Source: an uncultured Candidatus Rokubacteria bacterium (lineage in GTDB: Bacteria; Methylomirabilota; Methylomirabilia; Rokubacteriales; CSP1-6). Taken from it: DNA of 64,000 bases. Both the position numbers and the translations under genes were made by a program. The stretch is from positions 192,001 to 256,000 of the forward strand of contig CAVYTA010000007.1 of NCBI GenBank assembly GCA_963771355.1, written 5' to 3'. Positions 47,536-60,535 of the stretch are shown here, in pieces. The notes beneath the pieces are model-generated. The model searched no databases, was not told the DNA's origin, and saw only the letters and a list, made by a program, of their open reading frames with translations. Numbering within the stretch: the first letter of the stretch is position 1; every line of letters begins with the position of its first letter.

Positions 47536-48688
47536 ATGCCCACCCCATTCGCCACGCCCCATGTGTACGAGAAGCTCGGCGTCCGCTCGGTCATTCACGG
47601 CTCCGGCACCACCACGCGCTACGGCGGCTCCCGCATGCGGCCCGAGACCATCGAGGCCATGCGCGAGGCCGCGCAGGCCCACGTGAACATCGACGAGCTG
47701 AATGCGGCCGCCGGCGCCGCCATCGCCCGCCTGCTCGCACGCACCCGCCGCGCTGGTGACGGGCGGCTCCACCGCGGGCCTGGTGCTCCAGGCCGCCGCC
47801 TGCATGACCGGCGACGATCCCGCCAAGATCGCGCGGCTGCCCGACGCCGGCGGCATGCGCAACGAGTTCGTGATCCAGCGCGCGCACCGCTTTCCGTACG
47901 ACCAGGCCTATCGCGTCCCGGGCGGCGTGCTCGTCGAGATCGGGCTGGGACGGCGCACGGCCCCGCACGAGCTGGAGGCGGCCATCGGCGAACGCACCGC
48001 CGGGGTGATCTTCCTCGTCTCCCCTTTCACGAGCCCGCCCGGCATCCTGCCGTTCGAGGAGGTCTGCCGCATTGCCCACGCGCGCGGGGTGCCGGTGCTG
48101 GTGGACGCGGCCTCCATGGTGCCGCCGCGCGAGCACCTGTTCCGCTACGTCCGCGGGGGCGCCGACCTCGTCGTCTACAGCGGTGGCAAGGGCATCCGAG
48201 GTCCGCAGAGCACGGGCATCCTCGTCGGCCGGCCGGACCTCATCCGCGCCGCCATGCTGAACGCGAGCCCGAACCAGGCCATCGGCCGCGCGGCCAAGAC
48301 GTCGAAGGAAGAGATCGTGGGGCTGGTCACCGCGCTGGAGCTCTGCCTCGCCGAGGACGAGGCGGCGGAGATGGTGCAGTTCCGGGACGCCTGCGCGCGG
48401 ATCGTGGAGGAGGTGCGGGACATCCCGGGCCTGCGTGCGGTGGTGGAGCAGGACCCGGTCAACCGCGTGATCCCCCACGCCGTGATCTACTTCGAGCCGG
48501 ACTGGGCCGGCCCCAGCGGCCCGGTGGTGCGGCGCGCCCTGGCGGAGGGCGAGCCCCACATCTACGTGCAACAGGGGACCTATCAGGGCGGCTACGGGGA
48601 CGAGCTGGCGGTAGATCCCATCAACCTGCAAGCGGGGGAGGAGAAGCTCCTCGCGGCGCGGCTGCGCGAGGAGCTCACCCGCCGCTGA
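47536..48688 (+). CDS. SelA-like/DgaE-family PLP enzyme, +1 frameshift near 47737-47740
   Basis: LGVRSVIHGSGTTTRYGGS in frame 1; VLVDAA, YSGGKGIRGPQSTG, KTSKEEIVG in frame 2. Confidence 0.8.
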
Positions 48689-52879: not shown

Positions 52880-53020
52880 GGACGGATGATGCGCCAATCC
52901 GCGCATGCATGGCAAGCGGGTCGGCGGGGGCACCGGGGGCATCGCTTGACGCGGCCGCGCTCGTGCCGGACTCTAGAGGCCCGTGACTTATTCCGCGCCG
53001 CCCGACCCGACCCGTCTCGC

Positions 53021-56000
53021 ATGACCGCGTGTCCCCGCTGCGGGCACCCGGCGCTCGCGGGGGCTCGCTTCTGCTCCGCGTGCGGGACGCCGCTGGTGGC
53101 GCCGCCCGATCCCGCGCGCTTCGGCTCGCCGGGCGCCTACACGCCCGCCCATCTCGCCGAGCGCATCCGCGGCTCGCGCGAGGCGCTGGCCGGCGAGCGC
53201 AAGCAGGTCACCGTGCTCTTCGCCGACATGCAGGGCTCGATGGAGCTGCTCGCGGACCGGGATCCCGAGGAGGCGGGCCGTATCCTCGACCAGGTCCTCG
53301 AGCAGATGATGGAAGCCGTGCACCGCTACGAGGGCACCGTGAACCAGGTGATGGGCGACGGGATCATGGCGCTGTTCGGTGCCCCGCTCGCCCACGAGGA
53401 CCATGCCGTGCGGGCCGCCTACGCGGCCCTCCGCATGCAGGAGCGCATCGGCGCCTTCGGCGACCGCATGCAGCGCGCGGCGGGGGTGCCGCTGCAGATC
53501 CGCGTGGGCATCAACTCGGGCGAGGTGATGGTGCGCGCGATCGAGAACGATCTCTCCATGTCCTATACCGCGGTGGGCCCCACCGTGCATCTCGCCGCGC
53601 GCATGGAGCAGATGGCCAAGCCCGGCTCCATCCTCGCCACCGCCGACACGGTGGCCCTGGGCGGGGGCCGCGTGGTGACGCGCTCGCTGGGCCTCATCCC
53701 GGTGCGCGGCCTTCACGCCCCGGTGGAGGTGCACGAGGTGACGGGAGCCGCCACCGCCCCCTCCCGCGCCGACGCCGCCGCCGCGCGCGGGCTCTCCCCC
53801 TTCGTGGGCCGCGACACGGAGCGCGCCGCGCTCCTGGCCGCGCTCGACGCCGCCGCGGGCGGGGGCGGCCCGGTGGTGGCGATGGTGGGCGAGGCCGGCG
53901 TGGGCAAGTCGCGTCTCGTCCGCGAGTTCACCCGGCTCGCGCGCGAGCAGGGCGCCCTGGTGCTGGAGACGGCGACCGTCTCCTACGGCCGGGCGGTCGG
54001 GCACCGCGCCGGCATCGAGCTCAACCGCCGCTTCTTCCAGATCGAGCGGGGCGACGACGAGGCCGTCGCGCGCGAGAAGATCGCCGCCGGCATGCGCGCG
54101 GTGGACCGCGGCCTCGAGGACGGCATCGCCGCCGTGCAGTGGCTGCTGGGGGTGCCGCCGGCCGCGAGTCCGTTTCTCGCCCTGGATCCCGGCGCGCGCC
54201 GGCGCCGGGCGGTGGAGGTGCTCGTTCGCCTGGTGGACGGGCTGTGCGCGCGCCAGCCGGTGGTGCTGGTGTTCGAGGATCTGCAGTGGCTGGACTCCGA
54301 GGGCGCGGAGGCGCTCGACTACATGGCCACGCACATGCCGAAGCGCGCGCTGCTGCTGGTCACTTACCGGCCCGAGCACGACGACCGGTGGCACCGGGTG
54401 CCGGGCTATGCCCGGCTGCGGCTCGAGCCTCTGGCCCCGCCGGCGGCGCAGGCGCTGCTCGCTTCGCTCCTCGGCCCCGCCGAGGACACCGGCCCCATCA
54501 GCCGTCTCGTCGCCGAGCGCGGCCGGGGCAACCCGCTCTTCCTGGAGGAATGCGTGCGGAGCCTCGCGGACACCGGCGTCCTCGCGGGCTCGCGCGGCGC
54601 CTATCGCGTGGTCCGGCCGGCGGCGACCCTGGAGGTACCCGCCAGCGTGCGCGCGGTGCTCGCCGCGCGCATCGACCGCCTGCCCGCGGAGCAGAAGCGG
54701 CTCCTGCAGGCGGCGTCGGTGGTGGGCGAGGACGTGCCGGTGCCGCTGCTCGAGGCCATCGTGGACCTGCCCGTCGAGCGCGTGCGCGCGGCGCTCGACG
54801 AGCTGCGCGGCGCCGAGCTGCTTGCCGAGGCCTCCCTCTTTCCCGACCCGGTCTACGCCTTCCGGCACGCCCTCGCTCACGACGTGGCGTACGCGAGCCT
54901 GCTCCACGAGGGCCGGCGCGCGCTCCACGCGCGCATCGTGGAGACCATCGAGCGGCTCTACGCGGGGCGGCTGGACGATCAGATCGAGCGCCTGGCCCAC
55001 CACGCCTTCACCGGAGAGCAGTGGGCGCGCGCGGTGCACTACTGCCGCGAGGCCGGCCTGCGCGCGCTCGCGCGGCTGAGCTGTCCCGAGGCGGTGGAGC
55101 GGCTCGAGCGCGCCCTGGAGGCCCTCGGCCATCTCCCCGCCTCGGAGGAGTCGCGGCGGCTCGCGGTGGACCTCCGGTTCAACCTGGGGGCGGCGCTGGT
55201 TCCGCTGGGCGCGCATGCGCGGGCTCTGGGCGTCCTCCGCGAGGCGGAGGCCCTCGCGGGGACGCTGGGCGACGAGCGGCGGCTGGCGCGCGCGCTCTCC
55301 TATCAGAGCAACATGCACTGGGAGATGGGCGACGCCGAGGCGGCCAGCGAGGCGGGCCGGCGTGCGCTCGCCATCGCGGAGCGCGCCGAGGACCTCGCGC
55401 TCCAGGTGGTGGGCAACTTCAGCCTGGCCGGCGCCACGCGCTCTCTCGGCGACTATCCGCGCGCGGCCGAGCTCCTGCGGCGGAACGTGGCCCTCCTCGA
55501 AGGCGACTTGCGCTACGAGACCTTCGGCCTCGCCGGGCTCGCGTCCGTGATGTCGCGCAGCCATCTCGCGTGGAGCCTGGCCGAGCTGGGGGAGTTCGAC
55601 GAGGCCATCGCGCGCGCGGAGGAAGGGATCCGCCTGGCGGAAGCGACGGGTCACGTGTACAGCCTGGCCTACGCCTGTCTCGGGCTGGGCGGCGCGCTCC
55701 TCCGCCGCGGCCGGCTCGGCGCCGCGCAGGGCGTGCTCGAGCGGGGTCTCGCCCTCTGCGAGGAGGTGCCGGGACTCTTCCCGCCCTTCGCCGGCGATCT
55801 CGCCCTCGTGCGCGCGCTGGGCGGCCGTGCGACGGAGGCGGTGGAGCTGGCGGCCCAGGGCGTGGCGCGAGCCGAGCGCATGGGCCGCCTCGGTCGGCTG
55901 TCCCTCATCGCCACCCACCTCGGCGAGGTGCAGCTGCTCGCCGGGCGGCTCGACGAGGCGGCCGAGCAGGGCCGGCGTGCGCTCTCCCTGGCGCGGACAC

Positions 56001-56353
56001 AGAAGGAGCGCGGCAATCAGGTGTACGCGCTGCGGCTGCTGGGCCTCGTGGCGAGCGAGACGCTGCCGGCGGACCGCGATGCCGTTGCGCGTTACGAGAG
56101 CGCCGCCCGATACTTCGACGAGGCGCTGGCCCTGGCGGAGGCGCTGGGAATGCGGCCGCTGATCGCGCGCTGCCGCCTGGGGCTGGGCCGGCTGGCGCGG
56201 CGCGCGGGCGACGCCGGGACCGCCGCGCGGCACCTCGACGCGGCGACCGCGCTGCTCCACGAGCTGGGAATGACCTACTGGCTGGAGCGCGTGGATCTCG
56301 ACCCCGCCGGCCGCGCCTCGTCCCTGGGGCCTCCCGGGGCCGCCACGAGGTGA
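53021..56353 (+). CDS. Zinc-ribbon / class III adenylate-guanylate cyclase / AAA ATPase / TPR protein
   Basis: CPRC...FCSACG; VTVLFADMQGS, GDGIMALFGAP; GEAGVGKS; FEDLQW; GNPLFLEE. Confidence 0.93.
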   Translation: MTACPRCGHPALAGARFCSACGTPLVAPPDPARFGSPGAYTPAHLAERIRGSREALAGERKQVTVLFADMQGSMELLADRDPEEAGRILDQVLEQMMEAVHRYEGTVNQVMGDGIMALFGAPLAHEDHAVRAAYAALRMQERIGAFGDRMQRAAGVPLQIRVGINSGEVMVRAIENDLSMSYTAVGPTVHLAARMEQMAKPGSILATADTVALGGGRVVTRSLGLIPVRGLHAPVEVHEVTGAATAPSRADAAAARGLSPFVGRDTERAALLAALDAAAGGGGPVVAMVGEAGVGKSRLVREFTRLAREQGALVLETATVSYGRAVGHRAGIELNRRFFQIERGDDEAVAREKIAAGMRAVDRGLEDGIAAVQWLLGVPPAASPFLALDPGARRRRAVEVLVRLVDGLCARQPVVLVFEDLQWLDSEGAEALDYMATHMPKRALLLVTYRPEHDDRWHRVPGYARLRLEPLAPPAAQALLASLLGPAEDTGPISRLVAERGRGNPLFLEECVRSLADTGVLAGSRGAYRVVRPAATLEVPASVRAVLAARIDRLPAEQKRLLQAASVVGEDVPVPLLEAIVDLPVERVRAALDELRGAELLAEASLFPDPVYAFRHALAHDVAYASLLHEGRRALHARIVETIERLYAGRLDDQIERLAHHAFTGEQWARAVHYCREAGLRALARLSCPEAVERLERALEALGHLPASEESRRLAVDLRFNLGAALVPLGAHARALGVLREAEALAGTLGDERRLARALSYQSNMHWEMGDAEAASEAGRRALAIAERAEDLALQVVGNFSLAGATRSLGDYPRAAELLRRNVALLEGDLRYETFGLAGLASVMSRSHLAWSLAELGEFDEAIARAEEGIRLAEATGHVYSLAYACLGLGGALLRRGRLGAAQGVLERGLALCEEVPGLFPPFAGDLALVRALGGRATEAVELAAQGVARAERMGRLGRLSLIATHLGEVQLLAGRLDEAAEQGRRALSLARTQKERGNQVYALRLLGLVASETLPADRDAVARYESAARYFDEALALAEALGMRPLIARCRLGLGRLARRAGDAGTAARHLDAATALLHELGMTYWLERVDLDPAGRASSLGPPGAATR

Positions 56354-56357
56354 TACC

Positions 56358-57227
56358 ATGCCGCCCATGAACGGCGCGCTCACGAGCATGGCGGAGGCCG
56401 CCCGGCTCGTCCGGAACGGCGACCGCGTGGTCTACGTCGGCTACATGCGGATGGAGCCGGTGGCGTTCTTCCACGAGCTCCTCCGCCAGCGCCGGCGGGA
56501 CCTCCACCTCGTGCTGGCTCCCAGCTCGGGGTGGGTGGCCGACATGATGATCGGCGCCGGCGCCCTGGCCGACATCGAGTTCTCGAGCCTGTCCTTCATG
56601 GAATATGGCTTCGCGCCGAACTTCCGGCGCCGAGCGGAGGCGGGGAGCCTCCGCTACCTCGAGCACTCCTGACCCGCCCTCATGAGCGCACTCCAGGCTG
56701 GAGTGATGAACGTCCCCTTCGTGCCGGTGCGCGGGCTCCTGGGCACGGACTACATGAAGGTGCGGCCGGACTTCCGTGCGGTCCCCAATCCCTACGATCC
56801 CCGTGAGGAGATCGCGCTGGTGCCCGCCATCGCGCCCGACGTCGCCGTCTTCCACGGCATCCGCGGCGACCGCCACGGCAATGTCATCACCAGCGGGGTG
56901 CTGGACGCCAAGCTCATCGCGCAGGCCTCGCGGCGCGCGGTGGCCACGGTGGAGGAAGTCTCGGACGGCGACCTCACGCTCGAGCCGCACACCGGGGTGC
57001 TCGTCCCCGGCATCCACGTCTCCGCGGTCGTGCACGCGCCGCGCGGCGCCCATCCCACCGCCTTCGAGGGCAAGTATCCGGTGGACGGCGAGCACGTGCG
57101 CGAGTACGTGAGCGCCGCCGGGAGCGAGGCCACCTTCGCCGAGTGGCTGGACCGCTACGTGTACGGGGTGCTCGACCACGCCGCGTACCTCGAGCGCGTC
57201 GGGCTCGCAGCCGCGGCGGCCCGCTGA
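56358..57227 (+). CDS. Class I CoA-transferase-like alpha subunit, probable selenoprotein (UGA at 56670-56672)
   Basis: ORFs 56358..56672 and 56682..57227 are in the same frame separated only by TGA; joined length 289 aa; ADMMIGAG, LQAG..NVPFVPVRGLLGTD, VPAIAPDVAVFH..RGDRHGN; SECIS-like hairpin follows. Confidence 0.82.
56680..56709 (+). promoter_or_regulatory. Putative bacterial SECIS element
   Basis: TCAT-gagcg-CACTCCA-GGC-TGGAGTG-ATGA; apical loop begins with G, 23 nt after UGA. Confidence 0.72.
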
Positions 57228-57241
57228 AGCCGACGGGCCGG

Positions 57242-57976
57242 ATGGCCCCCACCGCCGATGAGCCCACCCGCGCCGAGGTGATGGCGGTCGCCATCGCGCG
57301 GCGCCTGCGCGACGGCGAGACCATCGCGGTGGGCTCGGTGTCGCCCATCCCCGCCAGCGCCTGCCTTCTCGCCAAGCGGCTCCACGCCCCGGCGGCGCGC
57401 CTCATCCTCCTCGGCAGCCGCGCCCACTTCCCCTTCAATGGCGGGGTGCAGGAGTTCTACAACTACGCGGTGCGGGGACGGCTGGACGTCTTCTTCGCCA
57501 GCGGGGCGCAGATCGACGGCCACGGCAACTTCAACCTCAGCGTGATCGGGGACTACGACCGGCCCACCGTCCGGCTGCCGGGCGGGCGCGCCAACGGCAT
57601 CCTCTCCTTCGTGGCCAAGCGCCTCATCCTCTTCCGCACCGAGCACAGCCGCCGCGTCTTCGTGCCCCGGGTGGACTTCATCACCTCGCCCGGCACCACC
57701 CCGGAGGGCGTGTACCGGATCGGCGGGCTCCACGCGGTGGTGACCGACCTCTGCGTGTTCGAGTTCGATCGCGCGAAGGGCCGCCTCGAGCTGGGCACGG
57801 TGCATCCGGGGGTGACCCTGGCGGAGGTCGAGAGCCGGACCGGGTTTCCCCTGCACGCGCCCTCGCCCGTGCCCGCCTCGCCGACCCCGAGCGCGGAGGA
57901 GCTGGCGCTCCTGCGCGGGCCGGTGCGCGAGGAGCTCGGCACCTTCTACCCGGAGTTCGTCAAGCAGCAGTCTTGA
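57242..57976 (+). CDS. Class I CoA-transferase-like beta subunit (GctB-like)
   Basis: LDVFFASGAQIDGHGNFN, RLPGG, HSRRVFVPRVDFITSPG, VVTDLCVF, HPGVT. Confidence 0.9.
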   Translation: MAPTADEPTRAEVMAVAIARRLRDGETIAVGSVSPIPASACLLAKRLHAPAARLILLGSRAHFPFNGGVQEFYNYAVRGRLDVFFASGAQIDGHGNFNLSVIGDYDRPTVRLPGGRANGILSFVAKRLILFRTEHSRRVFVPRVDFITSPGTTPEGVYRIGGLHAVVTDLCVFEFDRAKGRLELGTVHPGVTLAEVESRTGFPLHAPSPVPASPTPSAEELALLRGPVREELGTFYPEFVKQQS

Positions 57977-58054
57977 CGGGAGCCTCGGAAATAGGCAATA
58001 AGTATCGGGTTGCCCCGGATCACCCATTCTGAATCGCACAGGGAGATATCGCAC

Positions 58055-60535
<2,481 letters not shown>

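Follow-up and report, generated by a model that had tools for sequence, protein, structure and literature searches.

A CoA-transferase-like gene pair with an in-frame TGA

The window is a 64,000-nt stretch of DNA from an uncultured Candidatus Rokubacteria bacterium. On its plus strand it carries a gene for an alpha subunit with the class I CoA-transferase (GctA/IpdA-like) fold (56358..57227; 289 aa with a TGA read through) and, beginning 14 nt past the alpha stop, a gene for a GctB/IpdB-like beta subunit of 244 aa (57242..57976). The alpha reading frame comprises 867 nt (56358–57224), with alternative ATG starts at 56358 and 56367, and its sole interruption is the TGA at 56670–56672, codon 105 of 289, which reads EHS-U-PALMSALQAGVMNVPFVP. 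Both proteins belong to PF01144 and are encoded in tandem, as in class I CoA-transferases of the Gct type, and their closest solved chains are those of GctAB, AibAB and IpdAB. None of the NCBIfam models scored over its cut-off for the window's pair, and the clusters returned by a protein atlas search bear CoA-transferase names only.

A gene with Zn-ribbon, adenylate cyclase, AAA and TPR regions (52988–56353, plus strand) stops 4 nt short of the alpha start, and beta is followed by an H+-pyrophosphatase gene (58010–60535, plus strand); this gene order recurs in 6–9 close relatives only. No promoter or terminator was detected in a consensus scan of the plus strand. RNA-library contigs, which are no measure of transcription, match parts of both genes, and one of 183 nt crosses the TGA with a single mismatch at an unlisted place.

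Evidence for selenocysteine at codon 105

The TGA of the alpha gene very likely encodes selenocysteine (Sec105), as the initial annotation had read it. The same codon is TGA in 10 of 10 loci of a genome set and in 30 of 30 phylum loci examined (43–100 % identity), two sets that overlap and that both include the source genome. It is also TGA in 50 of 80 metagenome loci, with identity down to 38 %; the remaining 30 encode Cys (two), Glu (five) or Asn (23) at this position. A phylum search at 1e-40 gave matches in 79 of 251 genomes, with a TGA present in all 37 best matches. Among the 120 homologues listed for the read-through alpha protein, 112 are C-terminal halves starting just past the TGA codon and the remaining eight are full-length, all with Cys in the U column. 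A second search, seeded with those eight, found Cys there in 123 of 123 full-length proteins examined, which, where named, come from Paenibacillus, Cohnella and Proteobacteria. A conserved in-frame UGA aligned to a Cys of homologues is the pattern of a bacterial selenoprotein.

A SECIS-like apical hairpin with a G-rich loop (CACTCC-AGGCT-GGAGTG; 56689..56705, plus strand) lies +17 to +33 past the TGA. Its CTCC/GGRG stem was found in 64 of 66 Sec genes coding for L-Q-x-G, compared with four of 28 non-Sec homologues coding for the same peptide. The pair +18:+32 is maintained in all 67 Sec genes through five types (A-T, G-C, G-T, C-G and T-G), and positions +19 to +25 are invariant across 67 distinct Sec genes, third codon positions included. 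These stem counts and covarying flank pairs indicate a SECIS hairpin 3' of the UGA, as in bacterial selenoprotein genes. The folding energy of the hairpin did not differ significantly from that of shuffled sequences (z −0.06 to −1.4). The source genome encodes selA, selB, selC (tRNA-Sec) and selD, the protein families all scoring over their cut-offs. That the gene is split or dead and its TGA a genuine stop or an error of sequencing, as the splitting of alpha by gene callers and the unremarkable hairpin energy might suggest, is exceedingly improbable given the same codon in dozens of genomes at identities down to 38 %, Cys in homologues, SECIS covariation and a full set of Sec machinery. The selA gene that scores over cut-off sits elsewhere in the source genome (C7:113232); a SelA-like PLP protein with a weak PF03841 match is encoded in the window itself (47702–48688, plus strand).

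Position of Sec105 relative to solved structures

Family profiles compared with the solved chains (profile E 1e-42 to 1e-56) placed the U105 column on E117 of 6co6_A and E115 of 6con_A, in the motif EMDEG, with no gap on either side. Because the column falls gap-free on these residues, the alignment in the initial annotation, which had set U on the IpdA Glu, is judged correct. In 6coj_A the column holds A117, the only residue in which the printed alignments show the two Rhodococcus chains to differ; we take 6COJ to be the IpdAB E105A substrate complex. The Glu of this column is presumably the catalytic base of IpdAB, a role that was reportedly established by Crowe et al. 2018. The column corresponds to Q103 in GctA (1poi) and to G106 in AibA (5mzw), and canonical relatives have His or Asn. 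We assume GctA Gln103 to be an oxyanion-hole residue, a role for which no confirmation was found in the literature. Sec105 is thus predicted, from alignment to solved chains, to lie at the active site, with Sec or Cys standing where IpdAB has its alpha Glu.

Phe236 of the window alpha (57063–57065) stands where 41 of 62 family members, as well as GctA and AibA, have Cys. The replacement of this Cys in the window implies that it is not a required resolving residue, and the window alpha has no second conserved Cys.

Loss of the catalytic glutamate from the beta subunit

Class I CoA-transferases use a Glu of the beta subunit as nucleophile (ESG/ENG motif, e.g. GctB). The canonical site lies seven residues past the proline of a HAP motif (Pro+7). 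In the window this segment reads RLILLGSR (57398–57421, residues 53–60), from which the initial annotation had concluded that the Glu is missing; the alignment and the proline anchor bear this out, placing Leu57 (57410..57412, plus strand) at the site that holds Glu54 in GctB. AibB has Cys56 there, a residue that is varied in 5n00–5n03 and that part of PMC7756340 equates with the Gct Glu. The window's beta thus shares the absence of the Glu with IpdAB, in which Gly57 corresponds to GctB Glu54 and which displayed no transferase activity, according to part of PMC5380842. It has neither the Cys at the old Glu site nor the following loop of AibAB.

Across the family, Glu stood at Pro+7 in all 13 betas that accompany His-alphas and in 11 of the 12 that accompany Asn-alphas, the exception (L136) being a case in which the wrong frame was picked. 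At Pro+6 to +8 it was found in none of the 70 Sec, three Cys, 18 Glu and one Gly rows with a beta, where one beta of the Sec rows is truncated, the rows are not dereplicated and 55 of 172 alpha rows (20 Sec, 32 Asn and three others) are without a recovered beta. Cys occupied the old Glu site in one of the 70 Sec-row betas. The initial annotation had suggested that Cys or Sec in alpha might co-occur with loss of Glu in beta, and the combination of alpha Sec/Cys with a beta Glu was indeed found in 0 of 73 rows; however, the co-evolution test contained only one independent pair (p=1). The pattern amounts to one change on the alpha tree and therefore describes two lineages rather than statistical co-evolution.

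The loop after the lost Glu is shortened (57413..57454, plus strand) and ends at Glu71 (57452–57454). The span from Pro50 to Asp82 measures 31–32 aa in Sec-type betas against 50–54 in relatives, a deletion of about 19 residues. Glu71, part of the motif VQEF, was found without exception in 48 betas and had been named at the outset as a residue that might occupy the canonical position; it lies 14 residues beyond it. Because of this distance, and because Asp or Glu is also found in the Glu71 column of 14 of 24 betas that retain the canonical Glu, Glu71 is no sequence-level replacement and does not appear to be a relocated nucleophile, although it may still play some role. Three paralogous pairs in the source genome (C5:724861-726527, C6:1646492-1647996 and C6:1268953-1270668) have His, Asn or Met in the alpha column and beta motifs with Glu (IEGG, FENG and AETG).

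Phylogeny of the alpha subunits

Phylogenetic trees were obtained by quick IQ-TREE searches with 100 of 209 alpha rows after dereplication. The window alpha fell in a core clade of 60 rows (33 Cys and 27 Sec; SH-aLRT 99–100) in which Sec/Cys is invariant. Cys and Sec forms are interleaved within this clade, with at least three changes forced on well-supported branches. More Cys lineages were found outside the core clade, and a single clade of all Cys/Sec alphas was not rejected (p-AU 0.62), the constrained tree being 4.9 lnL higher. For the topology and co-evolution tests two long rows were dropped, and the beta states of 13 plasmid rows were entered by hand.

Genomic neighbourhoods

Clustering of the neighbours of the rokubacterial loci yielded generic genes only and no conserved pathway genes. 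The source genome has 32 matches to class III transferases and a weak match only to thiol dioxygenase; no CoA-disulfide reductase in it scored over cut-off (best 170 vs 579 bits). Among the Sec loci, L075, L077, L083/L085 and L067 encode CoA ligases or another transferase. Sulfur-free contexts were seen for L077 (TRAP, enoyl-CoA hydratase and thiolase), L081 (acyl-CoA dehydrogenases) and L172 (hydratase, ligase and BKACE). The steroid C/D-ring gene cluster expected of IpdAB was absent among the neighbours scanned.

The Cys relatives have more specific surroundings. Within the core clade, a class III CoA-transferase gene directly follows beta in all six proteobacterial plasmid loci fetched. Plasmid loci L161–L165 also encode a Mo S/N-oxide reductase and an AhpD-like protein, and plasmid locus L166 a glutathione reductase, a GST, a thiol dioxygenase and a 3-sulfinopropanoyl-CoA desulfinase. 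In L053, likewise of the core clade, the order is DmoA-family monooxygenase, alpha, beta, 3-mercaptopropionate dioxygenase homologue (E 8e-31), class III transferase and DinB (DinB/YfiT thiol transferase). Non-Cys pairs (L174, L196 and L197) have class III transferases beside them too, so that the presence of this neighbour argues against a transferase function of the pair rather than for carbon-sulfur cleavage.

Two further contexts are those of Cys lineages with a long loop, which fall outside the core clade and show about 33–37 % identity. In Acetoanaerobium noterae (NZ_CP154629.1, L167:111-14870) the pair comes right after a CoA-disulfide reductase (NF007123, 612 bits against a cut-off of 458), in a locus that also encodes MtnK, MtnA, a class II aldolase, a CoA-acylating aldehyde dehydrogenase, BMC shell proteins and PduL. 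The route through MtnK, MtnA and the aldolase yields 2-methylthioacetaldehyde, as described in part of PMC10986504; methylthioacetyl-CoA would therefore be expected from the locus, and a further step would be required to convert it to acetyl-CoA. Judged by its gene content, this unannotated microcompartment locus with its methylthioribose DHAP shunt is likely to be a methylthioribose fermentation pathway.

The second context is that of coenzyme M (CoM). Cys-alpha pairs lie among CoM biosynthesis and CoA ligase genes in Nocardioides JS614 (two copies), M. chubuense NBB4 (two copies) and Xanthobacter Py2. The four actinobacterial copies (JS614 and NBB4) have an FAD disulfide reductase upstream, and three of the five copies are accompanied by genes for epoxyalkane:CoM transferase or 2-oxopropyl-CoM reductase. 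The betas of JS614 and NBB4 carry a Glu at Pro+6, one residue before the canonical site (VEG), and that of Py2 has Ala. Pairs of the etn clusters are presumed, untested, to transfer CoA to malonate in part of PMC8727900, and part of PMC6440738 presumes that those of CoM/alkene clusters load CoA on malonate. This malonate CoA-transferase role is doubtful for the ethene and propene CoM clusters (L168–L171 and L195), since they have an alpha Cys and no canonical beta Glu.

A putative carbon-sulfur lyase

The loss of the beta Glu and the separate transferase encoded next to Cys relatives indicate that the enzyme is probably not a CoA-transferase, as the initial annotation had suspected. The pair could instead catalyse a selenium-dependent, reductive cleavage of the carbon-sulfur bond in CoA-activated thioethers, a tentative reading to which we give slightly less than an even chance. 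It is preferred because it accounts for the strict Sec/Cys, the retained CoA site and the lost Glu, and also for the separate activating enzyme, the adjacent disulfide reductases and the thioether-yielding pathways. We infer every chemical step, as well as the extension of carbon-sulfur cleavage from the Cys relatives to the window gene. A separate class III CoA-transferase or CoA ligase would make R-S-CH2-CO-SCoA, which would bind in the retained CoA site. The selenolate (thiolate in the Cys forms) would attack the thioether sulfur of this 2-(alkylthio)acyl-CoA, and the acyl-CoA enolate would depart and be protonated to acetyl-CoA. An outside thiol (CoA, glutathione or bacillithiol) would then resolve the enzyme-Se-S-R selenenyl sulfide and free R-SH, and a disulfide reductase would regenerate the resolving thiol. 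That the window protein has no second conserved Cys would be expected, because the adduct would be resolved from outside. Points against carbon-sulfur cleavage are that the clearest thioether contexts lie outside the core clade and that the neighbours in the window show no pathway. The sulfur-free contexts of L077, L081 and L172, the low CoA-disulfide reductase and thiol dioxygenase scores in the source genome and the Glu at Pro+6 in the betas of JS614 and NBB4 also speak against it.

An IpdA-like part for Sec/Cys105, as general base or Michael acceptor site with no net redox change, is unlikely but a serious contender; the reaction would be a retro-Claisen hydrolysis or a beta-elimination, for example of a 3-(alkylthio)acyl-CoA such as thiodipropionyl-CoA to 3-mercaptopropionate and acryloyl-CoA. 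It agrees with the shared IpdA Glu column, with the several clades that combine Glu in this column with Glu-less betas (18 rows) and with the hydratase and thiolase neighbours (L077 and L172). Among the 3-mercaptopropionate dioxygenase and desulfinase neighbours, which it also explains, the dioxygenase fits beta-elimination as well as it fits carbon-sulfur cleavage. However, Cys/Sec is strict (123 of 123 Cys) and is kept at the cost of a SECIS, and strict Cys/Sec pairing at a site is typical of a nucleophile or of redox function. Furthermore, beta-elimination is impossible for methylthioacetyl-CoA and CoM-acetyl-CoA, the substrates to which L167 and the CoM clusters point, and disulfide reductases adjoin the pairs there.

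The acyl-selenoester chemistry proposed in the initial annotation, in which Sec attacks the thioester carbonyl, keeps a modest chance but is rather unlikely. It could serve to hydrolyse thioesters, to pass acyl groups from one thiol to another or to carry out a thiolase-like step, and would make use of a nucleophilic residue in a CoA-binding active site that has lost the beta Glu, among acyl-CoA-metabolizing neighbours (thiolase, ligases and dehydrogenases). The adjacent disulfide reductases, the thiol dioxygenase and the thioether-yielding pathways are left unexplained by it; a selenoester alone does not load a free carboxylate with CoA, and the plasmid pairs already have a class III transferase next to them. 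The neighbourhoods of the Cys relatives better fit attack on a substrate sulfur.

It is quite improbable that the pair is still a CoA-transferase acting through another carboxylate, beta Glu71 or alpha Glu82, repositioned by the loop deletion, with Sec in an oxyanion-hole position. The invariance of Glu71, the presence of Glu82 in 60 of 62 alphas, the Gln, His or Asn found in the column of GctA and canonical relatives, and the database names would all be compatible with this. Against it stand the Asp or Glu at the Glu71 column of betas that keep the canonical Glu, the co-encoded separate transferase and the case of IpdAB, which lost the same Glu and for which part of PMC5380842 reports no transferase activity.

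Relation to known systems and possible significance

GctAB glutaconate CoA-transferase (1POI, PF01144) was the top profile match of each of the two chains (E 5e-56 and 3e-33) and has the same gene order, but its beta Glu is Leu and its alpha Gln103 is Sec in the window. IpdAB, the COCHEA-CoA ring-cleaving hydrolase (PDB 6CO6, 6CO9, 6COJ and 6CON), has the same class I alpha/beta fold, has lost the beta Glu and is mutated in 6COJ in the side chain of the same alpha column; it differs in having Glu rather than Sec/Cys in that column, and the window pair has the deletion of about 19 residues in beta and no steroid genes nearby. AibAB, a 3-methylglutaconyl-CoA decarboxylase (5MZW–5N03), is a repurposed Gct fold without the catalytic Glu (part of PMC7756340), but its beta has a dispensable Cys56 where the Glu used to be and its alpha a Gly in the U column, and the loop bearing AibB Glu72 is deleted in the window beta. 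CoATa/CoATb of the ethene and vinyl chloride (etn) clusters are a homologous pair with Cys in the U column, but lie outside the core clade and have a long beta loop. In 2-KPCC, the sulfur of a thioether, positioned alpha to a carbonyl, is attacked by a Cys, and an enolate and a mixed disulfide result. The proposed cycle would work in the same way if carbon-sulfur cleavage is correct, although 2-KPCC is of an unrelated fold, a flavin disulfide oxidoreductase with built-in FAD, whereas the cycle proposed here would act on a CoA thioester and depend on a reductase that is a protein of its own.

Class I CoA-transferases are absent from the 119 selenoprotein families in Table 1 of a 2026 review (PMC13188914), CoA is not mentioned in the deep-Sep main text, and PMC7176365 deals with formate dehydrogenase only. 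No selenocysteine CoA-transferase and no such thioether cleavage were found in the literature, where supplements and Deng et al. 2026 could list the family. By its sequence features, the pair apparently represents a real, uncatalogued selenoenzyme family on a repurposed CoA-transferase fold that belongs to none of Gct, IpdAB and AibAB. The present inventory of selenoproteins would thereby gain a family built on a fold that it lacks, a family whose genes are split in two by gene callers. Listed selenoproteins are almost all thioredoxin-like or metal-binding; chemistry by selenium at the active site of an acyl-CoA enzyme would be new, and the swap would be a third way to repurpose the CoA-transferase scaffold after IpdAB and AibAB.

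The broader proposition, of a widespread and unrecognized Sec/Cys redox class on this fold that cleaves 2-(alkylthio)acyl-CoA thioethers to acetyl-CoA and a free thiol, is conceivable but more doubtful than not. If true, the class would provide the unproven step by which CoM is freed when ethene and vinyl chloride are assimilated, as well as a way from methylthioadenosine to methanethiol that needs no nitrogenase; soil Rokubacteria would then be degraders of organosulfur compounds that depend on selenium for this. The named candidate substrates bear on steps of vinyl chloride bioremediation and methanethiol production, and the function can be tested directly in Cys-type members that are in culture, namely Paracoccus denitrificans PD1222, Nocardioides JS614 and Acetoanaerobium noterae.

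Further lineages

Alphas with Glu in the column and Glu-less betas, an IpdAB-like combination, were found at L091–L097, L122–L130, L139, L141, L142, L144, L147 and L159. These clades, several of them in tandem with a canonical His/Glu pair, are probably further non-transferases. A Sec alpha subclade with the motif EYP-U-GALL (L072, L073, L074 and L079, and also L088 on a short contig) has no beta gene directly downstream and has NUDIX and rubrerythrin genes upstream. Two loci labelled as from an archaeon and a verrucomicrobium (L004 and L010) are 81–91 % identical to the window genes and have the same neighbours, for which reason these labels look doubtful.
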